NCBI RefSeq assembly: GCF_964188315.1
Contig: NC_135661.1
Coordinates: 49,600,001 to 49,664,000 of the forward strand
From: Podarcis muralis
Lineage: Eukaryota
Length of the DNA stretch: 64,000 nucleotides
Reading direction: 5' to 3'
Part shown: positions 19,901 through 56,644 of the stretch, one piece after another
Layout of the letters: the number at the start of each line of letters is the position of its first letter
How positions within the stretch are numbered: the stretch's first letter is position 1
The notes under the pieces: model-generated
Databases searched by the model: none
What the model saw: the letters and a program-made list of their open reading frames with translations, nothing else
What the model was told of the DNA's origin: nothing
Translations under genes and position numbers: made by a program

Positions 19901-22662
19901 AAATTGGTTAGTCTTTAAAATGCCACAAGGCTCTTTCCCCCCCTTCATGCCACAGACTCACAAAGCTACCTTTATTGAAATAGGTTGTGACGCCTGGTTT
20001 CCGGAAGTAAGCCCCAGTGAACTTATTGGGGCTTGCTGCTCAGTGAGCATGCATATAATTCCACTGTAAGCATTTTCCCCACCCATTGAGTCTGTATTTC
20101 TAAGTCTCATGTTTGATCCCTTCACTTCTGGTATGATAGACAGTACCAGTCCAGGTATAACTTGCCACCAAGCAAAGGGAGGCCACAACAGTGGTGCATA
20201 CTCAAGTTGGGGGTGTTTGCACCTGATAGATGCTTTCCATTACAAGCAAAACACTATTTCAGCTGCAGTAGGTGATATGCATCTACATAGATAGACTAGT
20301 CAGCTAACAAGATTAGGATGCTAAGTTCTTGGGGTAGATCAAGGGTTGTGAACCTGAGTAGCATTGGTCTCACAAGGACCACTGCTGCATTTTAGGACCC
20401 TAACCTCCCCAGAGTTCTCCAGATCTTATCTGACTGCAGCAAGCAAAAAAGATTCAGCATAGCACAGAATTTAGAGGTTTATTCCAGCCTACAGGAAAGG
20501 TCTACAAGAAACAAAATTTGGAAAGGTCTGCATAACATTTGGAAAGTAGCAGCACCATGTTTAAACATACACTTCTGCTATTTTTTGCCCCTTATTTCTT
20601 GTTGATATTCAGTTTAATAAACCACCAATATAAGGACAGGCAGATGGCTATCTAGAAGAATTCCTTTTCATGTAGAAGCCTTCAGTTTTTTTTGCTACCT
20701 TGTTATTATTAAAAAAGAAAAGAAAAGGAAGGAAGGAAGAAACAAACAGCTGGTGTTTAATGACTCTGTCAGACCCAATTAAAAAACATCAACTAGTTAC
20801 TTTGATTTGTGCTCAGTCATGCCATGGGTATACTTAAAAACATTAGACTCCGCCAGAGCTCATTTTGGCTTTGTTCACATTTATCTTTTATACCTTTAAG
20901 GCTATTGATGGCATATAACCAATGTTACAGCCCCTTTCTAGCCATCAATTTTTAATCTAAAAAGATTCTAAGAAGCAGCAAGTCTCATGTGTAGTTACTT
21001 GGGCACTTAAACTCCAGAGTATGCATTACTTGTGTACTAGAAGTCGGAGAAGATAAATGATGAAGGCTGTTCGGTTACTCTGCTTCAAAAGCCAAAAATT
21101 TTGATATCAAAATATTTACAATTTCTGCTTAACGCAATTATACTGCTTTTTTAAAAAACAAGAAAAGAAAGAAAAGAAAACTCATTATAAGGGAAGAAAT
21201 CAGGCAGTACAAGAAAACAGTTCCTGTAGTAGAATTGCAACCCTGAAAATAAAATATTACTATTTCTGCTGTTCTCAAGCAATGAAACTTCAGTCAGTAG
21301 AAAGATGCCCCTATTACTGGACACACCTGCTCTGGGCTTTGTATACTCTCACCAGCTGGAAAGGATTGTACCAACTTCTTTCCTCCAACTTCTTTTCTCC
21401 AATTTCTCTGCACTCACTGTAAGATGTATGGACTCAGAGATAGGCTTTACTGCCTTTAGTTAAAAAGAATGGCCCATGACTCCATCAGGGAGACTTCCCA
21501 TCAAATATATGATGGGTGCTGTGCCAACACAGCCTCTAAGCTCCAGAATCCCACCATGCAGTCAAAGTGCTGAACCTTTTAAGGAGGAACCTGGGTCCAC
21601 CCTTGCCAACCTCTCCCACACTGCCTAACAAATTAGCTACTATTTCTAGTTTTTGTATTTTTAAAAAGTGGTCTAGCAGCCATGCTGAACTTTTTTAAAA
21701 AAACGTAACCTACATAAAAATAATAATTATAATAATCTGATACTGATAAAAAGCAGTCAGGCCCCGAGAGTGTGAATTGACAGGGGAGATGCAGATGGTT
21801 CCTGTTGCTATCAAAGGCATAATGCAAATATGTAGACTGAATCATATGGGCAGGGGGAGTAGGAGAAAGAGACAAGAATCTGCTTGGAATCCTTTCTTGT
21901 CAGATCTTGTAAAATGCAATTGGCCATTTCTGAATCGAGTAAGTTAATAGTTGACATCCTGATGCCATTAGGCTTTACTACAAAATGCCAAGGAGCACTC
22001 TGCTAATTCTTGTGTTGTAGAACACATTCCAGTGTTCCATTATTGGTCTTGGTAAGTCTAGAAATCAAAGTACCTATACCTTGTCAATTTGGGCAATCAA
22101 ATGTGTTTCTATAAATCTGATTACCTTTCCAGGTGGTTTTTTTTAAAAAAAATGATTTCCCAGTTGCACTATCCTCACCCCGCTATAGACATCAGTTGAT
22201 CAATAAATATTTTGTATGCCTAGAATGTGCTCTCCTTCAGAACCAGATATATGTTCTGGTGTTCATAAGATCCAGCAGTAGGTGTGTCTTGTCACAGTGT
22301 GTTTTGAAACAAAAACACCCACCCCTTGGTGAAATGTTTGGCGAAAAGTCATATGAATTCAGCCTTTAATGCTTTTATTTGGCTTATTAAGGCTCAGTAA
22401 CACACAGTTAGCAAATCTTGTTTTAGATTCCTGCATCCTTCCCATGTGGGCTTTGTTTATTTAATTTGCTTGCTTGTTTATTTGTTTCTTTATTTACTTT
22501 GCCTAAAACCAGTATGGATTACACAATAAAACAGGCCCTCTCTGCAGGTTTAAATAGATACATTCATATCTTCTTTATCCAAATGTGTTTAAGTAAAAAA
22601 AAAAAAAAAGCAATTGTATTAATTTAGGAAGCCAGGGTGAATGGGCATGTCTTACAGAGCTA

Positions 22663-22686
22663 AACGACTAAACAACAACAACAACA
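22663..22686 (+). mobile_element. Minimal BovB/RTE tail insertion (24 nt)
   Basis: aacgactaaacaacaacaacaaca matches the BovB-type 3' tail; 9-bp TSD acagagcta at 22654-22662 and 22687-22695. Confidence 0.75.
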
Positions 22687-23079
22687 ACAGAGCTACGTGA
22701 GTTTAGCAACAGTCAAATATCATATGGGTGGTCATGCCAGTGGTGGTAGAGAGCTGAAAGTGAAAGAAAGAGAATGGATAAATCTACTCCCTCATATGAT
22801 ATGGACATAATTTTGTAGACCTTACCCATTTTCCATTCTATTTTTAGGAAGTTGGCAAGTTTTTAGTTTATAATGAACCAATTTACTTGATATATAACAC
22901 TATACTCCTGATGTCTGTGGAGCAAATGTCCTTCCTAACCAAGAGAAGAATTTAGGAAGACTGTTGCGTGCTGAGGACCCGCAAAACCCCTACCCCAATA
23001 ACTCAGACAACACACATAATTTTTGTTTTAGGTTTTTGGCATAATTTTTTGGCCACAACTTTATTTATATACAAATTGA

Positions 23080-23422
23080 GAGTGGTTGTTTAGGCATTGG
23101 TTATGACTACCTGTCCCCCCCCCCCCGCCTTGGGGGACAGCACTGACTCCCTAGCCAGTCTCGGAGGAAACATGGTCAGAGTCAGATGGAGCTGCGTAAC
23201 AGACCCTCACTGCTCCGCGCATGTTCCTTGAAGCTTACGCGGCCCGCACCCTGCCGTCAGGGTTTGGACGAAGGGGATGGTAAGCTTCAGAATTCCTTTA
23301 ACGGAAAACCCGTCAGCAGCAGCATTGGAGGGGCAGGCACAGCCAATCCATACCCCTCCACCAACCAATTTTAACCAATGCCTAACCGCCATTCGAGCCC
23401 TTACGCTCGCCGCCAACCACTC
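23080..23422 (-). ncRNA. Highly structured 3' untranslated domain of the YR retroelement
   Basis: At least 8 complementary stem pairs found by eye, enclosed by an outer stem 23080-23103 / 23372-23422 (see findings). Confidence 0.6.
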
Positions 23423-24011
23423 ACAAACTAAACCACACCCTCAGCCTGGACACTAAAGCGTCCAACCACACATCATTCCCAACTGGCGAGAGATGAACCC
23501 CGTCATCCCTGTAAAATTCAATTGCCTTGAATGAAATCAGAGGGTGAGGGATAACTGCCCCACCCAGATTCACCACCAGCTTGCTTGCTGCGGAATTAAT
23601 CCGCTTCCTTACCCGTTCGGTGGCAGCTGGGCAAGGGCTACCCCGCCAAATGCGGCGTTGCAATAGCTGTGACCAAATTATCTTAGTTGACGGCACCAGT
23701 GCCGCCAGTTCTTTAAGGTCCAGTAATATGGTGGCACGCAGCACAAAGCAGGAAGATGATACCATATCGTTCTCCCCAAGCTGCACCACGATCGCTGAAG
23801 GAGGGCCACATCGGAGGACACGCCTTCGAATGAGAGGTAAAAATTCCCTCCACAGCATCCCCCTTCTGGAAATCCAGGACACCTGTACGTGGTGCGGGAA
23901 TCCCAGGCCATCACCCAGTCCGGACTGGCGAGCTCTGTCCGCAGCCCAGTGCACAATACTGTGCCCTACTATCCAGATACGGATAGCAGCCCGACCTAGG
24001 GTAAAACACAC
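23421..24011 (-). CDS. SGNH/GDSL-family hydrolase of the YR retroelement
   Basis: Motifs IVGHS (Ser), RRG, LGEND (Asn) and DGVH (Asp/His) are intact. No in-frame ATG upstream of the catalytic Ser; the track start is GTG. Confidence 0.85.
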   Translation of the reverse strand: MCFTLGRAAIRIWIVGHSIVHWAADRARQSGLGDGLGFPHHVQVSWISRRGMLWREFLPLIRRRVLRCGPPSAIVVQLGENDMVSSSCFVLRATILLDLKELAALVPSTKIIWSQLLQRRIWRGSPCPAATERVRKRINSAASKLVVNLGGAVIPHPLISFKAIEFYRDDGVHLSPVGNDVWLDALVSRLRVWFSL

Positions 24012-24032
24012 ACATATAAATACAACAACGCA

Positions 24033-24908
24033 TTATTTCCGTACGTAGGCTTTAAATGCATCCGATCGCCACCGACCCAGGTCCTTTATCCTCTTAACTG
24101 ACAGACCCCAGTGTGCAGCAGTTGTAGCCGCTCCAATCCTAAATGAGTGAGGGGCAAACTCAGAAGCCGGCAGGCCACAAGCCGCCACAGCTTTTCGTAA
24201 CACTCCATTAAACTGGTGCCTCACCAGCGGGCGGCCATTTTCATGTATGAACAGGGGCCCTTCGCCACCAGGACGCAAGGCTAAATACTTCGTAAGGTCC
24301 TTCACTGGGCAAGGGCCAGATTCGCCCGTCGCCGGGAGTGTAATGACAGCGCCCCTGCCTAGTTGGTCCGTCTTTGAATTCCTAACGTTAACCTGCAAGT
24401 CCCTTGGAGACACACTAACGTCCTGCATCAGCAAACCCCTTGAACCCCCGTCCAGCTTGCGCTCAAGGACCACTTCCCCGATTCTTAGGGCCCCAAAGAA
24501 AGTTAATGAAAAGGCTGCTGAAAATAGCCGAGCCTCAAATTTCGACCAACAGATGCTCCGCAGCTTAGACCGCATCTGCGCCAGCAGATCAAATGTAATG
24601 GGTCGTCTGGCAATGGTCCTGGAAGGAGTGAGTCGCCCCCATCCCTCCAGGGCCCTACGCACTACAAACTTCCTGCACGGATCTTTGTTGAAATATGCCT
24701 TATTAAAAAAGGAGATCGCTGCAGAATGTAGCCGAAGGGTCCTAGCTGCCCTACGCATCTGGAACAGATGCGCCAAATACCGGAGCACCTGAGAGGTGGA
24801 ATGGGGGGTGGAAACTTCCCCCACGGACTGCCCGCTAAATAATAAAAAGTCCGCCCAAGCCTTTTTATAGGACCTCAAGGTAGAAGGTGCAACAGATGCA
24901 GCTACTCC
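24033..24908 (-). CDS. Tyrosine recombinase (phage-integrase family)
   Basis: APSTLRSY N-terminus; catalytic R (LRIGE), K (NSKTD), HSFR, W (GRW) and Y (AYVRK). The frame is open upstream of the TTG at 24878; the true start is unknown. Confidence 0.93.
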   Translation of the reverse strand, partial: GVAASVAPSTLRSYKKAWADFLLFSGQSVGEVSTPHSTSQVLRYLAHLFQMRRAARTLRLHSAAISFFNKAYFNKDPCRKFVVRRALEGWGRLTPSRTIARRPITFDLLAQMRSKLRSICWSKFEARLFSAAFSLTFFGALRIGEVVLERKLDGGSRGLLMQDVSVSPRDLQVNVRNSKTDQLGRGAVITLPATGESGPCPVKDLTKYLALRPGGEGPLFIHENGRPLVRHQFNGVLRKAVAACGLPASEFAPHSFRIGAATTAAHWGLSVKRIKDLGRWRSDAFKAYVRK

Positions 24909-24916
24909 CTGTAAGA

Positions 24917-26521
24917 CTAAGTTCTGCCAAGGTTCCAGAGATGATCCGGGAAAATTTCCGGACGGTCTCGAGCCACTGGCACCAGGGACCTGAAACGCTC
25001 CATCTGAAAACGGGACAGAGCATCAGCAATATCGTTAGAAATTCCCGGGACAAAACGGGCAGAAAACACAATGTTAAAACGCAAGCAGTGTAAAACGAAG
25101 TCCCGAAGAAGGGCAGATACCCTAGGGGATCGTGAAGACTGCTTGGCCAGTACATTCACCACCTCCTGGTTATCGGTCCAGAAACAAACTCGGTGATCCT
25201 TGAAATGCTCGACCCATAAGTGCACTGCCACTACAATGGGAAAAAACTCGAGAAAGGTTAGGTCCCGCGTTATAGCCTGCCCCTGCCAAGCAGGCGGCCA
25301 GCGCTCAGCACACCACCTACCATCCCAGTACAAGCCAAACCCCAAGGACCCCGCAGCATCAGAATGGACCTGGAAGTCATTGTGGAGGTTCAAAGTGTCC
25401 TGCCACAATGACACCCCATTGAACTCTTCCAAGAATTCCAACCAAATTGCAAGGTCAGCCCGTACCTGAGCAGGAAGGCGGACCCTGTGATGCGGGGCCT
25501 GCAAGCCCGAGGTAAGTCTGGCCAAGCGCGAACAAAATGGACGCCCTGGAGAGACCACCCTGCAAGCAAAGTTCAGGTGGCCCAGCAACGACTGAAGTTG
25601 CCGCAGGGAAACCTTCTTTAATGGAATCATCTCCTCAATGACCTTTCGCAAATTGGTTATTTTCTCCAGCGGCAAGCTAGACGTTTGGGCCACGGTATCC
25701 AGCAGGATACCCAAGTAAGTGAGCTGCGTAGAAGGACCTTCGGTCTTACCAGCCGCTAAAGGAACACCCAGATCTTCCGTTAAGGAAGCAAAGGCCTGCA
25801 ATAAAACTACGCAGTCCCCTGTATTGCCAGCCGAAGCGACCAAAAAATCATCGAGATAATGCGTGACACCGCTCAAACCGGTTTTTTCACGCAAAGCCCA
25901 TTCCAAAAATGAACTAAAACACTCAAAAGCCGCACAGGCGACTGAGCAACCCATGGGCATAGCTTTATCGAAGTAAAAACTACCTTCGAACCGAAATCCC
26001 AGCAACCAAAAATCATCGGGATGAATTGGAAGCAGCCGGAACGCCGATTCAATGTCGCACTTTGCCAGTAAGGCACCCGGTCCGAATTTCCGGATCATCT
26101 TGATTGCGTGATCAAGAGAAGCATACCTCACCGAACAAAGCTCCGGGGGAATCACATCATTTACTGATGTGCCCCTAGGATGTGAGAGATTATGGATCAG
26201 GCGAAATTCGCCCGGGGCTTTTTTGGGCACTATGCCCAAAGGTGAAATATGCAAATTGGGCAAAGGTGGGACAGCAAAAGGGCCGGCCATGCGACGTAAA
26301 GCTAATTCTTTATCAATTTTCTTACGCGCCACCTCTGGCATATCCCTAATCGATTTTTGGTTCGCTGGGTTTTTGGCAACCGGGGCAGAGACCACCGGGA
26401 TTCTAAAACCTAAAGAAAAACCGTCACGCAAATAAGACGCCGCTTTGGCATCAGGGTACGACTTCAACAAAGAAAGTAGCGGCTGCAGCCTTACTGGGGT
26501 GTAAGCTAAAGAAGAAATCAT
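24917..26521 (-). CDS. Reverse transcriptase + RNase H
   Basis: VPKK..FRLI.NLS, KCDIESAFR, MPMG, YLDD; RNase H residues SDAAG, LEFFP, TDNQ, ADALSR; 534 aa uninterrupted. Confidence 0.95.
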   Translation of the reverse strand: MISSLAYTPVRLQPLLSLLKSYPDAKAASYLRDGFSLGFRIPVVSAPVAKNPANQKSIRDMPEVARKKIDKELALRRMAGPFAVPPLPNLHISPLGIVPKKAPGEFRLIHNLSHPRGTSVNDVIPPELCSVRYASLDHAIKMIRKFGPGALLAKCDIESAFRLLPIHPDDFWLLGFRFEGSFYFDKAMPMGCSVACAAFECFSSFLEWALREKTGLSGVTHYLDDFLVASAGNTGDCVVLLQAFASLTEDLGVPLAAGKTEGPSTQLTYLGILLDTVAQTSSLPLEKITNLRKVIEEMIPLKKVSLRQLQSLLGHLNFACRVVSPGRPFCSRLARLTSGLQAPHHRVRLPAQVRADLAIWLEFLEEFNGVSLWQDTLNLHNDFQVHSDAAGSLGFGLYWDGRWCAERWPPAWQGQAITRDLTFLEFFPIVVAVHLWVEHFKDHRVCFWTDNQEVVNVLAKQSSRSPRVSALLRDFVLHCLRFNIVFSARFVPGISNDIADALSRFQMERFRSLVPVARDRPEIFPDHLWNLGRT

Positions 26522-26522
26522 G

Positions 26523-28042
26523 CTATTTTCCTGCTCCCGTGGCAGGGGCTTGCGTAGTGGCTTTTGGGGGCTGCTGAGAGCCCCCTCCTTTCCGAAAGGG
26601 GCGGCGGCCTACCTGGCACACGGACCCGGAATGGTTCCCTGAACACTTATCGCACACATGTGCGTATTTGCAGGATTGCCGTGTACAAGCGCCCTTATTA
26701 AAATCCCAGCAAAAGGGCTTACGTCCCACCCTTGAAGGGGCAGCCTTAAACTTCTGGGTATCAGGGACCTTCTTGTCTATACGGGGGGCCACATAAGTGG
26801 TCCAGACGTCCAAGTCCTTCCGATCCCAGCGGGCCGTAGGGATCTTTGCCGCCCTCCGCCTAAAATTCTGGTCGTACGCTAACGCAGCAGTCTCTCCACC
26901 CATTGTGAAGGCGGAACGGACTATGGATAGGTACACCCAAAGATGCACGGATCTTCTAGGATAAGCCGCGGCCACCACTCCGGCAAAAACCTGGAAACTA
27001 TCTAACCATCGCTCGAAGGTCCTATCTGCCTTAGCTAAGACCGTCCGCTTCTTTGGAACGGGCAGACCCTTGTCCAGAGGCTCCTGGCCTTCCAGCGGGG
27101 GGGCCAGGCTGAATATATCAACATAGCGGCCGTCCAATATCCTGGCACGCAATTTGGAGGACAGGTGAGCCCCAGGAATAATGTCCCTGGCCGAGTTGGT
27201 GGAGACCTTTACATCCGGCACCAGGACCCCTTCAAGGCAGTCTTGCACTGCTCCGTACCTGGCCCTATGGGAATTTGCCCTCCGCTCCCAAACCCATTTC
27301 GGGAGCCCCGAGGTTTCCCCATAACCCCAGTATAACTTAAGGGGGGCCTCCTCATCACTACTCGTGCTCTGGGATGACTCACCTGACGAAGAGGAGGAGG
27401 TGTCTCTACGTCTCCTCTTGGCACGTTTCTTCGAACTTTTCTTACGGCGGCGGTGACCACCAGAGGATGCCTTCGGAGGAAGAGGGAGGCTATCCTCGAC
27501 CGACGACTCTGATGCATCGCCCTGCTGCGGAGTAGCTGGAAGTGACTGGAAAGACACAACCTGTGAATGACCAGGCATCGAGGTGCCCACCCCCGCGGGC
27601 TGCAAAGGTAACCTCCGCGCGACCAGACCCCGTGCAGGTGCCCTCTTTCCAGCCCCCGCCCGGGTAGAAACCCGACCCCGTGGCACGGCAACCTGCGGCA
27701 CAGGTGGCACCGAGGACCGAGCCTGAGGCGCGTCAGGCAAGGGGCCACTGGCTGGCAGTGGCTCTCTTCTTCGCTGGATGAAGACAGTGGAGACGAAGCA
27801 TCTACAGGTGGAGCCAGCATGGCAGAAGTTGACGGTGTCGAGTGGCGATGCATCAGACCATCCAGCTCCGTCTCCATCCTTGCCAGAGCCACCGGGTCGC
27901 CAGCCAAACTGGAGACCATGGATTGAAGGCGTCTCACCGACTGGCCAGGCTCAGGGGAACGTAAGGCCTGAGACGGGCCTCTTATGGGCCGCTTTGTGGC
28001 GCAGGCCGGACCAGACTTCTTCGTCGCCTTCTTTGGGGCCAT
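26523..28042 (-). CDS. Gag-like ORF1 with C-terminal zinc fingers, one frameshift near 27750-27760
   Basis: N-terminal part MAPKKATKK...SSSSEEE (ATG at 28042) continues in another frame as EPLPASGPLPDAPQ...; C-terminal CWDFNKGACTRQSCKYAHVCDKCSGNHSGSVC (CCCH plus CCHC-like). Confidence 0.8.
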
Positions 28043-28337
28043 TCCTACTACTGGTATAAAATTAAAAAAAAAAAGAAATTTAAGTTAAAATAAAATCAAA
28101 TAAAATTTGAGAATTGACAAGTAGGACCGAGTAAAGGATTATTGATGAATTAACGGTAAAGGCTCTAAAAGAATAAAGAAATAAAGTTAAATAAACAATA
28201 AAAATTAGATCAGGTACCAGTAGAAGCGAACGACCGCCCGGCACCAATACACTACGGCGTGGCAGAACCTAAGATAGCCAAGCCAAATGCAAGGCACCAG
28301 GTATCAGGCAATGCGGCCTATGCAAATATACCAGTGA

Positions 28338-28501
28338 CCACTAGAGGCCGTCACCTAAAAAAGAAAATGCACTGTTATACCTCCTGCGGCCACCAGAGGC
28401 CGCCACTCAATTTATTTAATTATTGTTCTATTTTTTAAGGCCCTGCAATTGCAGGGACTGACCACCAGATGGCGCCAATACAGAAAGAAGGCAAGATGGC
28501 G
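28338..28501 (+). promoter_or_regulatory. Cluster of three CTCF-like motifs plus a YY1-like motif
   Basis: ccactagaggccgtca (28338), ccaccagaggccgcca (28390) and ccaccagatggcgcca (28462), all in the same orientation; caagatggcg at 28492-28501. Confidence 0.65.
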
Positions 28502-29500
28502 CTCCCGCCAAATTGCCCGAAGAAGGAGGCAGCCCGGGGGACCCACCCGAACCAGGTGAGTCGATTCGACCCAGGCCGCCCCGCTGGCGCCCCAAAAGCC
28601 TTAAAGGCAGGGAACAGCCCACCAGCCGGGCCCACCCGGCCACAGGAATCCCAGGCCGCTGGCGCACACCCCCACCAGGCGCAGGGGCCTATCAACGCCC
28701 CGCGCCTGTGAATCGGGGCCTCGCGGGCCCGAAAAATTGCCGCGAGGCGGGGGGGCAGCCGGGCAAAGCCCAGGCCGCAGCCGGGCCGCGACGAGCCGCG
28801 GCGCCCGCAGGCCCAACGCGCCCCGAGCCGCGATGCCCGGCTCAGCGCGGCCCGTCGATCGAGGCGGCCACGCGCCCCGCGCAGGAGCCCGGGCACCAGG
28901 AGGGCCTCCAAGGCCAAACGAGCTCCGGGGGGCAGCGGGCGGAGCGGAGAGGCCGCGGCCGGGCCGACCAGGCTGCGACGCGCCGCGGCGCCGCAGGCCC
29001 ACGCTCCGCGGGCCGCGATGCCGGGGCAACGCGGCCCGACGCCCGCGACAGCCGCGCACCACAGCCCCCAGGCCCCGCGAGGGTCCCGAAGGCCCGACCG
29101 GTCCACGGGGCAGCAGGAGGAGGCCACGGCCAAGACGAACAGGCCGCGGCAGCACCGCCGCGCCCGCAGCCGATGTGCCACGGGCAGGTGCCGCCCCCGG
29201 GGATCAGGCCTCACCGGGCCGAAAGGCCCAAGGGGGGGAGACAGAAAGGCGCAGGCCCCAGCAGGGCGACCAGGCCCCGGCGAAGCCGCGAGGACCAGGC
29301 CCAGCAGCGGCCGACCAGGGCGAGCAGAGTACCAAGGCCCCCCCCCCAAGCTGTAGGGAGGCCGAGGGAGGAAGGGAGGCTGTTCCCCAACTGGCCCGGG
29401 CCTTCTGGCTCGGCCGAGAACCGGGCCGTCAGCCACCCAGGGCCAGAGGCCTCGTCCTCCCCCCTACCGAGAGCTAAGGCCCCGCTACTGCCCCAGAAAA
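28480..29500. promoter_or_regulatory. CpG island within the element's 5' leader
   Basis: About 1 kb of extremely GC- and CpG-rich sequence against an AT-rich intron background. Confidence 0.8.
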
Positions 29501-29627
29501 GCAATAAGGAAGGAAATTCAGAAGGAAGGGGAAATCAGGAGGAGAAAAGAAAGACAAAGGGAAAGGGACAATCACGGGAATATACAACCAACTCTTGCTG
29601 AAGGCACACGGTGCAGATAGATCCGAT

Positions 29628-29805
29628 GTCCACAGCAAAAGAGAAAGAGAAAGCTGTGGACCCTGCTTATATAAGGGAACTAATCCCACCCCTCAATTGG
29701 CAACATCAATTTTGCCCTAGTAACAACTACGACCAATCTGCTCCAGCCCATTGCCATCAATGGACTGGTCACTAACTAGGGTTTTGCTTGGCCCCATCCG
29801 CAACA
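29628..29805 (-). promoter_or_regulatory. Putative Pol II promoter at the element's 5' terminus
   Basis: CCAAT/ATTGG boxes and TATA-like CTTATATAAG (29666-29675), followed on the minus strand by a 9-bp hairpin gtccacagc/gctgtggac (29628-29661) with a pyrimidine-rich loop where the TSS would fall. Confidence 0.55.
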
Positions 29806-29831
29806 CGTGCTCTCTCTTTATGAGAACACGC

Positions 29832-30314
29832 TTTGTTGTTGTTGTTTAGTCATTTAGTCGTATCAAACTCTTTGTGACCCCATGGATCAGGGCTCGCCAG
29901 GCACTCCTGTTTTCCACTGCATCCCGCAGTTTGGTCAGACTCATGTTTGTAGCTTCGAGAACACTGTCCAACCATCTCATCCTCTGTCGTCCCCTTCTCC
30001 TTGTGCTCTCTATCTTTCCCAACATCAGGGTCTTTTCCAGGGAGTCTTCTCTTCTCATGAGGTGGCCAAAGTATTGGAGACTCAGCTTCACGATCTGTCC
30101 TTCCAGTGAGCACTCAGGGCTGATTTCCTTAAGAATGGATAGGTTTGATCTTCTTGCAGTCCATGGGACTCTCAAGAGTCTCCTCCAGCACCATAATTCA
30201 AAAGCATAAATTCTTCAGCGATCAACCTTCTTTATGCTCCAGCTCTCACTTCCATACATCACTACTCAAAAAACCATAGCTTTAACTATATGGACCTTTG
30301 TTTGCAAGGTGATG
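29832..30314 (-). mobile_element. 5'-truncated BovB/RTE LINE 3' end
   Basis: Peptide RVPWTARRSNLSILKEISPECSLEGQIVKLSLQYFGHLMRREDSLEKTLMLGKIE...RQRMRWLDSV; (CAA)n tail; closely similar to the 4481-4901 copy. Confidence 0.9.
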
Positions 30315-30340
30315 AACTATTTATTTGTTTATTTTTAAAG

Positions 30341-30605
30341 GTTCACGGATATTAAAGACAACTCAGGAAAACTTGACTTCAACTCACTTTCTCCATCAAA
30401 GAAGGAATACTGGTCTATGCTGGCCTACAACCGGTCTAAGTTGTGCAATATTCTTTTATCCAATGAGCTGAACCGCCGCCTTTCTCCCCATGGGGTGACA
30501 TCAAATGCAGTGCATCCTGGAAATATGATGTACACATCCCTTCATCACAACTGGTGGCTGTTTACCCTGCTGTTTACCTTGGCTCGCCCTTTCACTAAAT
30601 CCATG
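30341..30605 (+). CDS. WWOX: WWOX coding exon (human exon 8 equivalent)
   Basis: ttttaaag|G TTC ACG...TCC ATG|gtaagt, 265 nt. [88 protein letters not shown] carries the catalytic YxxxK (YNRSK). Confidence 0.98.
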
Positions 30606-32858
30606 GTAAGTGAACTACATTTTATACATCTTTGGATTATTAAGTGTGCTAGATTTTCAGAAATCCTGCTGTAACTTTCTTATTTCAGCAGTGTTTCATA
30701 ACTGCTAACTTCAGCAGTGGCTACCATAACCATGAAACTCTGAATAAAAGAGTCTGCATTTCTAGCTTGCTTTGATTGCTTTTTGATAGACAGTTGTGCA
30801 TTTTCAGTGTCATGCAATTCTGTGCATATATGTTGTGTACAGTGTGAATATCAAGTGAGTCTTTGCTGAGGGGTGGATCAGAAATGTGAGAGAAGAGAGA
30901 GGTGGAACTGCAGATAGCATTATGCTTGGGAGATGCTATAAAGATGGGATGAGTAGAAGAAAAATAAATGCTGACATCTTTTTGAAAGCAAAACAACAAC
31001 AACTCTGAAATATATGAATGATTAACTCCATAGCATCTCATTGACTTTCATAACATCTAAAATTTGGAGCTGTTTTCATATACTTGCTACAGTTCTGCCT
31101 TAAAACAAAATGTTTGTGTTGGCACCTAGGGAAGCAGAAAAGTATCAAATCTTAAGGCTGCCAGAGCTTAGCAGATGTTTCAGTGAACGGAATTTTCAAA
31201 TTCTTTAGCATTAAAAATAGCTAGAAATCTGAGGTGCTTGGGTTACACTTTCTGTTTCGGTGCAGAGCCAACCATTGTGCTTGAGTTTTAACAGATGTGC
31301 TGTTTTTTTCCAAGTGGATGGGAATGCTTTTTTTCAAGTGGATGGGAATATAACACTACTACTGCTGTGTAGTTATAAATTATAATCAGAAAAAATTCTT
31401 AACCTTAGATAGATATAGTGAAATAATTGTATGCTCGAGCAATATGCCTGCATGTATATGCCCCAGTGCCACTAAGAAGATCCATGGTGGTAAGAAGATT
31501 AAAGCATATATATTTCTTGCTGGATTGGTCAAGTGAGATACACATTTGGATACACCTGAATATTTATCTGACTGATAAAGGTGAGATATACTGTCCTGAA
31601 TAGATACTAAATACTTTTTTTAAAATGAAAGCTCAGATTCTGGGCGTACCTGCCCAGGGGAATTCCTAGAAACCTTCATGGGCACCTTGTTTATATCATC
31701 CATAAACAAATCTCCTGATTCAGTAGAATTGCTCAGATATGTTAATGATAGTTTAAAGGAGGATTTAAGAAGCAATACTTTTAAAAAATCCTGCTTTATT
31801 ATTTTCAGTCTTTTCATTTTTAGCACACCTATGACTTTACCTACCACCTACTAAAGCTGACAGTACTTAAGTAGTGAACACATGGTGCAGTAGATTCATG
31901 AATGGCACCCAATATGCTTACCTTTCCTTAGCTGAATGCCAGCTTGTTCTCCACCTTCTTTTTTAATTAAACTTTAAAATGAACAATGAAGAGCAAGAAC
32001 AGAGAAACACTTGAGATTATTGGCTTGGAAGAAAATGATCTGCACCCTAGAGAAAGCCAATTGCACATAAGCAATTCCCCAGTGGATCATATTTAGCCTG
32101 GGTGTCAGCACAAAACTCTTGACATTGAATCCTCCCTCACAGACCAAGTCATCAAACCATCTTTGATCATGCTTTATGCAACAGCAGTTTCAGTTATTAA
32201 ACCTCCTACAGGGTCTGCTGCTGGCAGGCTAAACCACTGTTATTTCTTTTTTTTAAAAAAAAAACCCAGCCAGGATCAATCCAAATAGAGGCAGAAATCT
32301 TGAAATCCCCTGTTCACAGTGGGCACCACTGAAGTGGTTTTGAGGCTGTATTCTGGCAGTTCAGGATGCCAGTTCATACTGAAGTAATTAAAGTTATGCG
32401 TTCTAAATGGTATAACTATTCTGATTCTAGTTAGCTTGTAGGCAGATCTCAAGTACGGAAGAGCTTGCATTAAACTTCAAAGTGTTAGTGAAGTAGTGGG
32501 GAACCTGCCCTCCTCAGTTCTTACCCTTTGTTTTTGGACTTCCACTCCTGTCATCACCAGCCTGCATGGCCAATGGTCAGGGCTTATGGAAGTTGCAACT
32601 ACTGAAGGGCCACAGGTTCTCCCCCCCTGGTTTAGTGTATAATATTTTCACTATTGGTAATTTGGTAACTTAAATATAATATCTTACCAAAGTTGTTCAG
32701 TCCTCACAAAAGTAAGATGTTTAGTCAAATACTCAAGAAATCAAAAGTCACATGCAAGGAACCAGGAGAACCAGTCAGACATACAAAAAGCTGAAGAGAA
32801 AAGTAAGTTTTTCCAGAGAGTAAAAAAGTCCAGGGACTTAGCTACATTGGTCAAATTA

Positions 32859-49541: not shown

Positions 49542-49846
49542 TGTTGGTGTGTTGGGGTGGGGATGTGGGTGCTGGTACGCTCTGGTGCCACCATAGTGCT
49601 GGTTGGGTATCAGATTTTAGCCTGATTGTGGGTTGTGTTATTAAGGTTGGAGTTGTTTTTCCTTAGTATGGAGTATGAGGATGTTGAAGGTGTGGGTGAT
49701 GGGGAATGTGGTTGAGGTCGTATGGACTGGTGTTGGGGTGGGGATTTCTGTGGGGGTGCGGGGCTGGGGGGGGTGTTGATGGTGTTAACTAAATCTATGT
49801 TTTGGGGGGGAGGGGGAAAAAAAGGGGGGGGGAAATCACCAGTCCT

Positions 49847-51103
49847 TCAGTTTGTGGTTTTTTCCTGGTTGCTTCTTTCAGCCGGGGTTGTTGTTGTTGT
49901 AGGGTTGTCCATCTGCGATGAGTTGGTTTGGTTGATCTTGGTCTGGTTTCTTGTGTCGTATGGTCGGCGGGACGGTTCTGAGCATGATGCTTGCCTGTAT
50001 TGGTTTGTGTTGTTGCGCCGCTTCTGTTGTATCTTTTTCTTCTGTACCATTGTCCAGTTGTTTGCTGTTGTTTCCTCATGGTTGGGGCTGTCGCTTGGTG
50101 GGTTTGTCGGTTTCCATTCCGGCGGGAGGTCGAGTTCAAGGTTCTTTAGTAGTTGCAGGGCCTCGGGTATGTTGGTAGCCATGTGTTGTGTTGTGTTCGT
50201 TGTTACAATGAGGCGGAAGGGGAAGCCCCATCGGTATTTGATCCCTGCTTGTTGGAGACGCTGGGTGCATGGGCGCAGGCTTTTCCTCCGGTTTAGGGTA
50301 TCCTGCGATAGGTCCTGTAAGGCCAGAATGGGGGTTTCTCCATATCGAAGGTTGCTTGAGTTTCTGAGTTGATGCCATATTTCTTCCTTCTTTCGGTAGC
50401 GTGTGAAACATACAATGATGTCTCTTGGGGGGGCGCTGGGTTTTGGCATAGGTTTTAGGGCTCTGTGAGCCCTCTCCAAGTCCTCTGCCTCAAGTTTCAG
50501 GCTTGGGATTGTGTTTTTCAGCCAGCGTATAATTAGGTCCGCTGGGCTTTTCTCCTCTGTTTTTTCAGGAAAGTTGCGGAAGCGGATGTTACAACGTCTA
50601 TTGCGGTCTTCAAGGTCGGCTTGCTTAATTTTCATCTCGTTGTGTTCTGCTTCCATTTGGTTTACCAGTTCGTCCAGTTTCTTGTTCACACGTGCGTTCT
50701 CCTCCCGGTATTGTTCTATTATTCTTTCTTGCATTTGGTTCTTGTTCTCTAGAGCTTCCACTTTGGAGGTTAGATTGTTGATTAGTACCTGCATGGGAGC
50801 CATTGTGGCCTTCAGTGCTTCTTCTAATCGTGCTTCCATTTCCCTCAGATCTCGTTTCGTTATTGGGTGGTCATCATCTTGAAGGGGAGCTACCATCTTA
50901 GCATTGTTTGCCATCTCCCTGGTTGGTGTCATCTCGGTCTCCCTGATGGTTTTGGTTTGAGGTTGGCTTGGCGTCCTCTTGGGGTTGGGCGTGTGATGGT
51001 TAGGAGTTGTGGCAGTGGTGATTCCTGGGTATTGTTGGGTTGCTGAGCTGATCAGGCTTTGTTGGCTGGTGGCTTTTACAGAGCGTTTCGATTAGGTGGT
51101 CAT
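49847..51103 (-). CDS. L1 ORF1 (coiled coil + RRM + CTD); in-frame TAA at codon 4 of the upstream ATG
   Basis: LEDRNRRCNIRFRNFPE, ERAHR, PRDIIV, QDLS...RR, YRWGFPFRL are L1 ORF1p hallmarks. The frame is open from 51091 to 49847. ATG at 51103 is followed by ACC ACC TAA; the next ATG is at 50932. Confidence 0.88.
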
Positions 51104-51926: not shown

Positions 51927-54100
51927 TTAATCAAGCACTTTGTTTGGAATATAGGGCTCATTTGTTCTTTCAACCACCGATAAAAACTTTGCCACTGCCA
52001 AAGTTCTAGCTTTTGTCCGGTCTTCCAGTAGGAACCTGACATAGTGAGCCTCTGACTTTCCCGGGAAAGGCACCAGCAAGGGTAGTATCAGTTCAGCCCT
52101 GGCCTGCTCATACTTCGCACAATGTAACAAAATATGATTTATGGACTCGATGTCTTGAGCACACGAGCAAAGTCTGTCCTGGTAGGGAACTCCTCTCAAC
52201 CTACCATCCAGCACTGCAGAGGGGAAGACATTCAGTCTGGCCTTGGTGAAAAGGCTTCGATAGTTAGGTACTGTCAGGTTTTTGATGTAAGGTGTTAACT
52301 CAAAGACATACCCATATTGAACTCCTGCTGCCAGTGGACTACAGACTGCGTGTGACCGAGATCGCAAGTCACTGTGTGCATTGTCCCATAATCTTTGCTT
52401 TAAAGCCTTTTGGGCGCCTTCATAGCCCAGGTAATACAGTTGGGGGGGAGACAGACCAATAGAGGTGGCTTTTTTAGCCATGGTTTTCTGCCATTTGCTG
52501 ACAAATTCCTCATTGGTGATATGTTGGTACAGACCCTTCCCTAGATTAAACACTGAAATCCTGAGCCAATGTCTTAGGGCAGCCCACCATGCTCTAGCTG
52601 AAATTGGGCATTCACCAGCTTCCAACAGAAGTACGGAGTTGGGGACGCAGTTAGGTACCTGCAGCAGAGATCGTATAAATTTTGCCTGAAAGCCATCTAG
52701 CTTTGGCAGGTCCCCATTATGCCAGACATTTGCTGCATACAGGAGTTGGGAAACGGGCTTTGCGTTGAAAACCCTTAAGGCTGCTGGAACATATTTGCCG
52801 CCCTTTGTGAAGAAGAATTTATGTATGGCTAGCTTTGTAATCTCCGCCTTTTGAAGGGAGGTTTGCCAATGGTGCTTCCAAGATCTTGTATGATGGAATG
52901 TGAGCCCTAGGTAGCTGAAGTATTTTACCTGTTCGAGGTTATGGCCATCCAGCACCCATTTAGACTGGGAGAATCTTCTTTCGAAGACTAAGATTTTAGA
53001 TTTTTCATAATTAATGGATAAACCATTTCCAGAACAGTAATCAGAAAATTTCCTCAACAGATAATTTAAGCCCGGCCTGGAACGCGAGATGATGGCTGCG
53101 TCATCAGCATACAACAACAAAGGGGTCCTTCTCATTCCTATTTTTGGAATGTGTCCATCTGGGTCCATTAAGTTCTCTTCTAGGTCATTTAGGAATAGGC
53201 AGAACAATGTGGGGGCCAAAATACAACCCTGTCTCACCCCCCTAGTCATCTCGATGCTGTTCGATAGCTGTCCCTGTCGACCGCATCGGACCTGCAGTTT
53301 GGTTCCATTGTACAGGGCTTTTATAAGAAAGAGAAGTCGTTTGTCCTGCAAGATCAGACTCAATTTGGACCATAGCTGGGATCTGGGGATGGAGTCAAAT
53401 GCTGATTTCAGGTCCATAAAGGCCACGAAGAGTTTACCCTGTAGGTGTCTGGTATACTTCTCAGCTAGGAAGGACAGCATTAGACAGTGGTCTGTTGTTG
53501 AATGATTCTCACGGAAAGCTGCCTGGGCTTCAGATAGTATATTATGTTCATTTAGAAAAGTTGTCAATTTGCTACTGAGGAAATGGGCATATAGTTTCCC
53601 AATTATTGAGAGCAGGCTAATAGGCCTATAATTGGAAGGTACATTTGGGTGGCCTCTCTTAAAGATTGGGACTACTATAGCATGTTTCCAGCTATATGGT
53701 ACCTTACCAGAGTTATTTACTACCGTAAAGAGTGCTGCCAGAAGCGGGGCCCACCAGTGCTGGTTTGATGTAATCACCTCAGCTGGGATAAAGTCTTTCC
53801 CCGGAGCCTTTCCGCTCTTCAGCTTCCCAATTAATGTATGGACTTCCTCCACAGTTACCGGCCTCCAATTAGGGAGCAGTGACAATTGTACCCTGTCATC
53901 CTCCTGTGAACTGGAAGGGAGGTTTGGACTTTCCATAAATATATTTCTGAAGTGGTTCTCCCAAACCTGAGCTGGAATGACACAGCTGGGGGCTGAGGAG
54001 CTATTTCTCATTGAGTCGGAGACCAGTTGCCAAAAGAGTTTAGTTTCATTGTTTAGTGAGGCATTCAATAGTAGGGACCAGGAATTTTGTTCGGACTGCC
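51927..54100 (-). CDS. Nested LINE ORF2, RT + C-terminal zinc-finger-like part
   Basis: KAPGKD, YRPISLL, QAAFR, DLKSAFDS, GVRQGCILAP, LLYADD, YLG; C-terminal RLCSC...ESINHILLHC. Joined to the APE part by a frameshift at the T7 run 54101-54107. Confidence 0.9.
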
Positions 54101-55336
54101 TTTTTTTGAGGCCAAAAGGGCTTTGTACTCTTTTTTGATTTTGAAATAAGATTGAGGTAAGTAGCTTAATCCAGCGTTTCTATAGGCCAAATAGGCGTTC
54201 CTTAGGGCTTCCTTCTTTGTGTGGCACTCTTGGTCAAACCAACTGCGCCCTTTCGCAGTGCGTGGCTTGCCGGCTGAGTTTATGTTAACCGAGACCACAT
54301 CCTGCAAGGACTCAATGAGATTTTCGTAGGCTGTCAGGGAGGAGTCTATTGATAAATTGTTTATTATAATTGATCTTAACTTAAATGCAGTTTGTGAATT
54401 CAATCTGTTCTCAACTGCAATTGCTATCTCAGGTGTCCATTTTTTCCTACGCAATGCTGGATCATTTGCTTTGTCTATGTCCTCATGTTCTATGTGAGAG
54501 TGCTGAATTGAATTTTGGCCGGTAATGGAGATGATAAGAGGTAAGTGGTCACTTTCAGTCCTATTATCTATTGTGAATTTTTTAATTGATTCGAAGGCCT
54601 GTCTGTTAGTGAGACAGTAGTCTACTGTGCTGGCCCCATTTGAATTTATGAATGTGTACTCGCCTTCTCTGTCCCCGGGGAATGCCCCATTAGCAATGAT
54701 CAGATCCAGACTTATTTGTAAAAAAGCCAGGCAGAATCCAGCATAGTTAATTTGGCAATCTTTCGAATGTCTACGTGGGGGTGGGTTTAGCAAGAGGGCG
54801 CTATTTTCCTTTAGATCTCTTAATATTGGGAATTTTATTTCCAGGCTATCATCATTTGAGCCTATTCTGGCATTCATATCTCCCATTAGGTAAAATGGTG
54901 AGCCAGGGTACCTAATTTGTAGGGAATAAAGGAAACTATGGATTTTACGCCACGTGCTCTCTATCTGTGTTTGCACTGTATATGGTGGAATATACACTGA
55001 AACAAAAATAATACTCTTGGATTCCATTTGCAAGGTGATCCCCAGTGCCAGCTGCTCGAAAACTGAGCACTCAATAACTTGTGACGTCAATTGAGTGGAA
55101 ACCAGAGTTACTAGGCCCCCCCTCGGTCGTCCCCTTCCAAGCGGTTTAGAGGCCTTGATTTCATAGACGTCGTAACCGTCAAGAGCTATGTTATCAGTTG
55201 CCCAAGTTTCCTGCAGCATTATTATGTCAAAACCCATTATATAATCACGAAATGGCTCGTCCCCAAGTTTGTTAGCCCAACCCGCTATGTTCCATGAGAT
55301 AATGTTAAAGCTGCTCGTTCCATAACTGGCTTGGCT
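54065..55336 (-). CDS. Nested LINE ORF2, APE endonuclease part
   Basis: SWNIAG, LQETW, SVYIPP, GDMNARIG, STVDY, SDHLP. The frame is open from 55336, directly after the ORF1 stop. Confidence 0.9.
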   Translation of the reverse strand, partial: SQASYGTSSFNIISWNIAGWANKLGDEPFRDYIMGFDIIMLQETWATDNIALDGYDVYEIKASKPLGRGRPRGGLVTLVSTQLTSQVIECSVFEQLALGITLQMESKSIIFVSVYIPPYTVQTQIESTWRKIHSFLYSLQIRYPGSPFYLMGDMNARIGSNDDSLEIKFPILRDLKENSALLLNPPPRRHSKDCQINYAGFCLAFLQISLDLIIANGAFPGDREGEYTFINSNGASTVDYCLTNRQAFESIKKFTIDNRTESDHLPLIISITGQNSIQHSHIEHEDIDKANDPALRRKKWTPEIAIAVENRLNSQTAFKLRSIIINNLSIDSSLTAYENLIESLQDVVSVNINSAGKPRTAKGRSWFDQECHTKKEALRNAYLAYRNAGLSYLPQSYFKIKKEYKALLASKKGSPNKIPGPYY

Positions 55337-56644
55337 TCATTGTGGTGGGGAAATTGTTATCAGCTCTCCCACTGGTTCGGTAATGATGCAACCGTTCTTA
55401 GGGTATGCACGGTGTTGTTGTTCTCGGGGTTGATTTGCAGCATTTTCCTGATTTCCTGGCATCGACGGTGTTATTTGGATTGCTGGTGCCATCGGGGGGT
55501 CTTCGTCAAAGATAATTAAATCTGTCTCTGGCTTTCTATGTGTCCCATTTCCCTTGGGAGGGTCGTCACTTGGCATTGGCTGATCAGATTCCAGTTGGGA
55601 TAGAGGGTGGTGAAATTCTGGATCTGCCAAAGGCGTAATGGAGAGTCCTATCTTTGAATTATCTAGCTTGGGCTGGCGTTCTTTGTGTGTTTGACCTTTT
55701 TGGTCTGATGTTATCCTCTCCAAGTGAGTGTTGCAGCTGGGTTCACCGCACATATTCATCTTTGACGGCCCTTCCGAATGAATCATGGCCCTGTGGCGAA
55801 AGCCCTTCGGCAGAGAGGGTGCTGATTGCTTGGAGTTGGTCCGGCTATATGACAAGTTTGGCAGTAGTTGTTTTCGTTCTGTGTCTTTAAAAACACGCCT
55901 CAAAACAATATTATAGTCCTGTAAAATGGCCCTATATTTCAATAGCATTTTAGGGGTAGCTGAGTCAGAAAATGTCAGCGTGAGTCTAGTGTGCTGGGGG
56001 TCCGTGCAAAGCAAGTTTATCGCGATCAGAGTGTTGCAATGGATATTTAGTAAAAGCTTAAAGTTTCTCTTCACACTGTCGATTGATTTCCAGTAAGGCA
56101 GGATACCATTAAAAGGATATATGTCCAGAGCTACTTGAGTACTTTGTAGGATCAGGTCCCTACTTTCGCTTTTGTTGTTTTTAATATTTGTAGTCTCTTG
56201 GTTATCAAGTCTGGGCCGGTTGCACCCCTGTACATGATGGTCTAGAAGGAGGGCAACGCTATGGTCGGTCTCTTTAGTACTGAGTTGGCTATTTTTGGCT
56301 GTCAGGAGCACCAACTCCGCCAGGAGAGACGTTACCTTTTGTAATTTGATGTTAATTTCCTCCACTGTTCTTGCAGTCAGCAGACAGTGGTCCGCGAGTA
56401 TTTCTGCATAGAGCGGTGCCCCCTCAGATGGTAGTTCATGGGATAATTCATGAGCGCTCATCTCAGCATTCTCCCCTGGGCGATCTCCGCCCAATAAAGC
56501 ATCCCCACCTACCTGGGAATGAGTTCTGTTTGGTGTGGTAGGTTCTGAGTTCTGTGCTTTTACAAAATCATCCATTTTGCTCTGCTTTCTCTTCTGTGGG
56601 CTCCCTTCTGGAGATGAGGCCGGTCGTTTCTTTTTCCTAGTCAT
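55337..56644 (-). CDS. Nested LINE ORF1 (435 aa; basic NLS-like N-terminus, no domain recognised)
   Basis: Position upstream of APE, MTRKKKRP start, uninterrupted. Confidence 0.75.
   Translation of the reverse strand: MTRKKKRPASSPEGSPQKRKQSKMDDFVKAQNSEPTTPNRTHSQVGGDALLGGDRPGENAEMSAHELSHELPSEGAPLYAEILADHCLLTARTVEEINIKLQKVTSLLAELVLLTAKNSQLSTKETDHSVALLLDHHVQGCNRPRLDNQETTNIKNNKSESRDLILQSTQVALDIYPFNGILPYWKSIDSVKRNFKLLLNIHCNTLIAINLLCTDPQHTRLTLTFSDSATPKMLLKYRAILQDYNIVLRRVFKDTERKQLLPNLSYSRTNSKQSAPSLPKGFRHRAMIHSEGPSKMNMCGEPSCNTHLERITSDQKGQTHKERQPKLDNSKIGLSITPLADPEFHHPLSQLESDQPMPSDDPPKGNGTHRKPETDLIIFDEDPPMAPAIQITPSMPGNQENAANQPREQQHRAYPKNGCIITEPVGELITISPPQ

Follow-up and report, generated by a model that had tools for sequence, protein, structure and literature searches.

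A conserved multibranch RNA domain at the core of the B split direct repeat of a Ngaro-type retrotransposon in Podarcis muralis

The densely paired segment at positions 23080..23422 of the window, which here denotes the whole stretch of 64,000 nucleotides that was analyzed (Podarcis muralis contig NC_135661.1, positions 49,600,001 to 49,664,000), makes up the core of B, one of the split direct repeats of a Ngaro-type tyrosine-recombinase retrotransposon. The fold region comprises B as far as the poly(A) signal, together with the 31 nt preceding B. The initial annotation had placed a folded RNA domain between the stop codon of a hydrolase frame and a poly(A) signal; this placement is confirmed in part, and the RNA strand of the domain is the minus strand. 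The element belongs to a known class, whereas the conserved RNA domain appears to be undescribed and has candidate functions only; a literature search turned up no account of RNA structure in the repeats of Ngaro elements.

The host element and its genomic forms

The element occupies 6.9 kb on the minus strand (22964..29835, read 29835->22964) and its ORFs run from 28084 to 23421 on the same strand. A gag-like region (26523..28084), present in the window copy as two overlapping frames of 291 and 475 aa with a weak CCCH match, is followed by a reverse transcriptase (RT) ORF of 563 aa (24917..26608; Pfam RVT_1), a tyrosine recombinase ORF of 329 aa (24033..25022; Pfam Phage_integrase), and a SGNH/GDSL hydrolase frame (23421..24032), which lies in the frame of the recombinase with one TAA between them. 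The hydrolase frame has no ATG ahead of its GHS motif and ends at the TGA at 23423-23421. Its match to Pfam Lipase_GDSL_2 (E 0.004) is below the curated cut-off; its relatives carry the name SGNH hydrolase, and their hosts are lacertid lizards, agamid lizards, and a newt. RNase H is expected in Ngaro elements; no Pfam match to it was obtained in the window element. The Pfam scans also gave no rve match, as sought for a DDE integrase, in six element frames, and no methyltransferase match in the element frames. The combination of an RT with a tyrosine recombinase, split direct repeats, and a SGNH hydrolase after the recombinase marks the element as Ngaro-type.

The A repeat (217 bp, 29619..29835) carries the start hairpin and, on the minus strand, a TATA-like box (29673-29667) and a CTCTT initiator-like motif (29643) that is a putative start site. 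The B repeat (428 bp, 22964..23391, read 23391->22964 on the minus strand) has a second copy, B2, in full elements, which read A1-ORFs-B1-A2-X-B2, where X is a 167-nt spacer that is absent from the window copy. The window copy has the form A1-ORFs-B, without the A2-X-B2 part of full copies, and its insertion site is a CAA-like target. Similarly, Xenopus DIRS-53_XT, a Ngaro with a SGNH hydrolase ORF, has the order gag, RT, tyrosine recombinase, and hydrolase, and A1...B1-A2-B2 split direct repeats that are identical within a copy (PMC9210276). By contrast, its B repeat measures 152 bp instead of 428 bp, the conserved 167-nt X between A2 and B2 is a feature of the elements described here, and the excerpted part of PMC9210276 describes no RNA structure.

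The A2-X-B2 part is present in 68 of the 94 hydrolase-anchored loci of the clade to which the window copy belongs, and the repeat layout is unchanged from 100% down to 42% hydrolase identity. Three genomic forms occur, namely the full element, A-ORFs-B (the form in the window), and A-X-B. The last accounts for 8 of 30 A matches in the window's family and for 23 of 25 matches in a second family, where the query was itself an A-X-B unit, so that the ranking favors that form; in a third family, all 20 fetched copies, among 221 motif matches, are A-X-B, and the B1-context pattern matched three. These ORF-less A-X-B copies keep the fold. Permuted copies of the form A-X-B-A-ORFs were also sought, and B was found upstream of A1 in none of 16 A1 ends, as is expected if the B|A joint defines both ends of the cDNA.

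One old family (L256-L278), with at least 221 motif matches, consists almost entirely of A-X-B units, ORF-less and about 800 bp long; a full copy and two A-ORFs-B copies, all decayed, were found in it as well. In another locus (L010:2134-2940), an A-X-B unit of the second family is inserted precisely where a window-family copy ends with B, perhaps owing to a likeness between that end and the unit's own site. In two loci (L226 and L241), the last 12-16 nt of A are tandemly duplicated at the edge between A1 and the leader; these duplications are possible scars of a template jump. Short ORF-less units are known from two other systems. SIRE of VIPER consists of A, an exclusive middle piece of about 30 bp, and B (PMC6681497), and the Cafeteria Ngaro elements have solo AB repeats (PMC8547959); both resemble A-X-B, and their origin, by mobility or by recombination, is left open in these sources (PMC6681497, PMC8547959). 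In the elements described here, however, the place of the middle piece is taken by the structured, 167-nt X, and ORF-less units outnumber B1 copies by about 70:1 in one family.

A conserved splice-acceptor-like sequence, ...ccctag|GT, lies ahead of the hydrolase at 23996/23995. Acceptor-like sites precede both the hydrolase (window 24035-23995) and gag (28061-28042), and such sequence motifs suggest putative spliced mRNAs, with readthrough as the alternative. The element sits at the end of a CAA-rich retroposon tail (window 29836-30330), and a similar tail lies inverted at 22660-22693; we take the retroposon to be BovB/Sauria-like. The plus strand at window 30339-30606 presumably holds a host exon resembling WWOX, in which case the element would be intronic and antisense. 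The minus strand also carries two LINE-type elements whose long open frames comprise endonuclease and RT, one at window 45272-51091, with a GDSL-like ORF1, and one at window 51927-56692, which is split across frames.

Structure and conservation of the fold

All of the complementary arms listed in the initial annotation are found where it put them, and seven of its ten stems hold across subfamilies. They are 23080-88/23414-22 (P1, the outer stem, 23422-14 with 23088-80 on the minus strand), 23394-98/23405-09 (P1a), 23090-103/23372-85 (P2, the 14-bp closing helix of the multibranch domain, 23385-72 with 23103-090), 23326-33/23353-60 (the P3 hairpin, 23326..23360), 23230-38/23280-88 (P5a, 23288-80/23238-30), 23248-53/23258-63 (P5c, 23263-58/23253-48), and 23111-19/23132-40 (P8, 23140-32/23119-11). 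The 5′ arm of P1 lies outside B and belongs to the B1 context only; in B2 a different arm, from X, takes its place. The P1a hairpin (23409-05/23398-94) is followed by UGGCGG at 23391-86, the 5′ edge of B, the two together spanning 23386..23409. P5 as a whole (23230..23288) also contains P5b (GUCC/GGGC, 23269-66/23245-42).

Three inner stems had to be replaced. In 21 young copies of the clade, 23188-92/23212-16 was paired in 62.9% and 23143-49/23179-85 in 59.2%. For 23301-04/23310-13 the figure was 89%, but a hairpin with a GUUAAA loop, 23307-03/23296-92, does better (99%) and takes its place. This hairpin is P4 (23292..23307, GNNANA loop), the most conserved inner element. The revised minus-strand structure further includes P6 (23166..23227), a long irregular hairpin whose outer part aligns poorly between subfamilies (49-91% paired), and P7 (23159-53/23148-42), which with P8 spans 23111..23159. 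The description of almost every base as paired was overstated, as several long linkers are unpaired in the consensus. Downstream of the domain, the AAUAAA at 23065-60 is followed by the near-invariant GUUGUGGC (together 23052..23065, minus strand); in the B2 context, the complement of this sequence stands at the end of X. A P4-loop pseudoknot candidate and a group I-like UAGUC motif were considered by eye, and neither had a covarying partner; ARAGORN returned no tRNA match.

In the window copy, the minimum free energy corresponds to a z of -5.2 on the minus strand and -5.3 on the plus strand, and none of 100 shuffles was as good. Among 19 tiles along the element, this fold is the strongest (z -5.0), the next tile reaching -2.8. 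Without the two closing stems, z drops to -2.5 in the window and ranges from -0.2 to -4.7 in 11 divergent copies; thus, much of the energy signal comes from P1 and P2.

For the structure alignment, 21 of the 94 clade copies were taken as young and non-redundant. On these copies, the structure of the initial annotation had 87.4% of cells paired and 18 two-sided pairs, compared with 11.3±1.5 in shuffles and 3-7 when the structure was slid; the revised structure had 89.9% of cells paired and 24 two-sided pairs, compared with 14.5±1.9 in shuffles, which like those above ignore the relatedness of the copies, and 4-12 when slid. A single MAFFT alignment across the clades misaligned the inner helices, and anchored counts were therefore used for the wider comparison. 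When 31 anchored pairs were scored in 21 lineages, standard pairs made up 607 of the 621 cells, a count in which invariance is partly built in because the anchors include helix letters, and in which one lineage with a mis-anchored P4 (L213) was kept. Nine of the 31 pairs change on both sides, against 3-4 in slid controls, and G-U cells outnumber A-C cells 33:3, an excess that points to selection on the RNA strand rather than the cDNA. One row with a deletion (L126) was left out of one clade comparison, and copies failing the motif anchors were left out of the motif-order, B1/B2-edge, and cross-clade alignment sets.

A de novo G-test with a tree-based null, applied to 64 and 28 sequences from two clades, gave no significant pair. 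The best E values (0.23 and 0.33) both fell on non-pairing columns, the true pairs lay at E 9-12, and deep splits dominate the test. The fold rests on consistency and helix-level compensation, not on single significant pairs. The suggestion of a cis-acting retroelement RNA is nonetheless supported by the conserved fold, by its two-sided changes at 42-50% hydrolase identity, by the preponderance of G-U over A-C cells, and by the ORF-less copies; what had been missed is that the segment is part of a terminal repeat.

Besides the 94 loci of the clade (58-100% identity), the hydrolase searches yielded another 64 loci, almost all of them with 42-52% identity. In all but a few deleted copies, the order is stop codon, P1a hairpin, GGCGG, P2, P3, P4, P5, ..., P2, P1, and AAUAAAGUUGUGG. 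P2 has a near-invariant core of 11 bp; in the distant third family, which was reached via a motif seen in RNA reads, four P2 pairs differ from those of the window, each on both sides. At still greater distance, a hairpin followed by UGGCGG occurs 45-65 nt past the hydrolase stop in three of four metagenome contigs with 33-39% hydrolase identity (L248, L249, and L251, two of which look related); the fourth contig is without the motif. These four were examined for the boundary motif out of eight metagenome loci, and their 3′ flanks of 105-276 nt are too short to extend beyond it. Among viral contigs, no relative and no motif match was found. The full domain is not universal in Ngaro elements, since the B repeat of the Xenopus Ngaro has only 152 bp (PMC9210276).

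Repeat edge, spacer X, and transcription

In each of the 86 scored copies, one of which is a cross-family chimera, B1 and B2 become identical at a point 2-8 nt upstream of the P2 core. Although the 30 nt on the inner side of P2 show 37 variants overall, B1 equals B2 there in 82 of 85 copies, and the few differences between B1 and B2 are spread along B. Variable nucleotides that match within copies, with scattered differences, indicate that B is copied whole from one template. A1 and A2 are also near-identical in all six pairs compared. Taken together, these identities point to one B being copied into both places and X being joined to it where P2 has its base; this X|B joint is probably formed anew in each cycle. 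The B|A joint (L002:2126-2185; window 29835-29795 and 22970-22964) folds as a covarying hairpin in nine of nine lineages, with the insertion point beside an inner mismatch. This hairpin may be a recombinase site on single-stranded cDNA, or a primer; folded single-stranded att sites and retron RNAs are known systems for comparison.

The two copies of B stand in different contexts. In B1, the outer P1 arm and the P1a hairpin derive from bases past the hydrolase stop, and in distant clades the last hydrolase codons add a B1-only helix of 12-13 bp that extends over the start of AAUAAA. B2 instead receives a P1 arm from the end of X, and this arm covaries with B. X also contains GUCACAACUU, complementary to the bases directly after AAUA and exact in 109 of 129 X copies, and a U-rich two-sided loop between a covarying lower stem and CC/GG in 114 of 129 copies; its U runs are 3-7 long and are interrupted by G in the window's clade. 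X thereby matches the sequence pattern of an ENE (a U-rich loop on both strands and short G-C-closed helices), and a triple helix is putative. The ENE pattern of KSHV PAN RNA and Arabidopsis Evade (PMC12501189, PMC13541005) resembles this loop. The X loop differs from them in lying in a separate spacer held to the tail by predicted long-range helices; Rfam searches of seven divergent loci (E≤1) gave no ENE match. The B fold of the window itself has no ENE, the P5 internal loop being pyrimidine-rich on one side only.

X (L002:2353-2519 and other copies) is the most conserved of these parts, with a mean distance of 0.12, compared with 0.20 for B, 0.31 for A, and 0.29 for hydrolase DNA. An exchange of X between lineages was considered and set aside: in 64 copies, the distances measured on X, A, B, and hydrolase are correlated with one another (rho 0.73-0.92), with no clear swap. 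The chimeric copy L010 was left out of this comparison and of the B1/B2 comparison.

A2 has the TATA-like and CTCTT motifs of A1, so that a short RNA from A2 is possible. Transcription was surveyed in four raw RNA runs from two studies, of which 6-12% of each run was read; 51-72 reads fell on the window-family A-X-B and 97-146 on a sister family, from both strands and mostly from other subfamilies. X and B are thus transcribed at a low level in several subfamilies, with reads covering the X|B junction region. At this low depth the reads gave no joints and no pile-ups at starts or ends, and revealed no start or poly(A) site and no separate short RNA.

Candidate roles in replication

It is tempting to speculate that the B-repeat fold is a cis signal fixing where the RT switches template to join X to a fresh B, a reading that we favor while granting it somewhat less than an even chance. 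The RNA would start inside A1 and read through B1 to B2. Copying into cDNA would begin at the hairpin of the B1|A2 joint and proceed through B1, and the RT would pause at the B1-only P1a hairpin and move to X|B2 via the shared UGGCGG and P2 strand. A switch would yield A-X-B, no switch the A-ORFs-B form of the window, and one pass of each the full element. In the B2 context, P1 and P2 would fold 330 nt out and bring X beside the poly(A) site, where the tail would be kept in place by the ENE-like U-rich loop and by a 10-bp helix between X and the bases following AAUAAA; likely protein contacts would be the invariant loop of P4 and P5b. Every copying step of this model is inferred. Template switching accounts for the edge, the three genomic forms, the lack of a permuted form, and the B1-only hairpin. 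However, the P2 boundary is also expected from selection for an intact fold in both B copies, P2 is too invariant for an exact placing of the X|B joint, and the model requires read-through of B1, whose AAUAAA is predicted to be harder to open than that of B2 in only 6 of 19 copies. As has been proposed for the solo AB repeats (PMC8547959), the short forms could also come from recombination between repeats.

The homogeneity of B1 and B2 and the edge at P2 are explained just as directly by self-priming, which we consider unlikely. In a Tf1-like manner, the 3′ strand of P2 in X-B2 would be cut free and prime cDNA at the X|B edge; the cDNA would copy X and the A end and jump to read-through RNA, and the circle would close at P2. 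The near-invariant 11-bp P2 core and the abundance of A-X-B copies fit this scheme. Self-priming is known in Tf1 and Tj1 (PMC4600332), whose duplex, like P2, is a short intramolecular one at a replication boundary; Tf1 pairs an RNA 5′ segment with the primer site, whereas P2 closes a 3′ domain, and priming by it is putative. For DIRS elements, PMC7192593 describes the primer as unknown and mentions a 3′ hairpin as a suggestion. The cDNA of DIRS-1 is mainly linear and single-stranded, and its internal complementary region (ICR) and 3′ hairpin are, like the fold described here, cis sequences for rebuilding termini missing from the RNA; DIRS-1 uses inverted repeats with the ICR, in contrast to direct repeats with a 330-nt multibranch fold (PMC7192593). 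Against self-priming, a full circle would have two like B|A sites and should often integrate in permuted form, which was seen at none of the 16 A1 ends; the cut would remove the very poly(A) end that X seems built to hold; and the RNA reads, at low depth, show no pile-up at the site.

A scaffold at the 3′ end alone is about equally doubtful. P1 and P2 would loop the domain out, X would clamp the poly(A) tail through an ENE-like triple helix and tune poly(A) use, and the fold in B1 would be a mere template for B2. The covarying stem, U-rich loop, and CC/GG of X, its conserved complement to the bases after AAUA, the covariation of its P1 arm with B, and the B1-only helix over AAUAAA in distant clades all favor such a role, and an ENE raises the mobility of Evade (PMC12501189). 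Nevertheless, the 10-bp helix between X and the bases after AAUAAA is predicted with P>0.8 in only 9 of 19 copies. An arrangement in which the poly(A) signal is closed in B1 and open in B2 was rejected: the B1 AAUAAA is harder to open in only 6 of 19 copies, and the mean predicted opening cost is 2.1 kcal/mol in B1 versus 2.9 in B2. X has no Rfam ENE match and is lacking in the window copy, and a scaffold leaves the conserved P4 loop, P5b, the B1-only P1a hairpin, and homogenization to the base of P2 unexplained. A tail-protecting scaffold can be compatible with either switching or self-priming. A further idea, no more probable than these two, is that the A2 promoter drives a second RNA, non-coding and about 550 nt long, which consists of the A end, X, and B; it would combine the ENE-like clamp with a retron-like self-priming primer-template for the RT and, copied alone, would have spread as ORF-less families of hundreds of copies.

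Retroviral psi and CTE elements are RNA handles for packaging and export, and the multibranch surface of the B fold might likewise bind Gag or an export factor and select unspliced RNA. Its covarying stems bear conserved loops and bulges of a kind suited to binding a protein, the acceptor-like sites ahead of gag and of the hydrolase point to both spliced and unspliced RNAs, and ORF-less copies retain the fold. The fold is, however, present in every predicted transcript and cannot alone pick out genomic RNA, Rfam gave no CTE, RRE, or psi match, and the repeat edge is unexplained; such a handle is quite improbable. A self-cleaving ribozyme of a new class, as the initial annotation had also proposed, would explain the sharp edge by cutting at the 5′ edge of B to make a template end, and is in keeping with the near-invariance of the GGCGG linker and of a few bases in loops, but it is very improbable, since Rfam searches of the element (E≤10) and of seven divergent loci (E≤1) gave sub-threshold chance matches only, a motif scan found the hammerhead core in none of 147 copies, in agreement with the initial annotation, few unpaired bases are invariant, the P4-loop pseudoknot candidate does not covary, and RNA reads span the X|B junction region.

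Template switching guided by the B-repeat fold, like its alternatives, bears on the question of how cDNA synthesis starts and how split repeats are rebuilt in tyrosine-recombinase retrotransposons. To this question the fold supplies exact conserved coordinates, namely those of the P2 base, of the P1a and B|A hairpins, and of the putative clamp in X. It also suggests how the three genomic forms may arise, and it can serve as a structural tag by which ORF-less derivatives of Ngaro elements are recognized in the genomes of reptiles.
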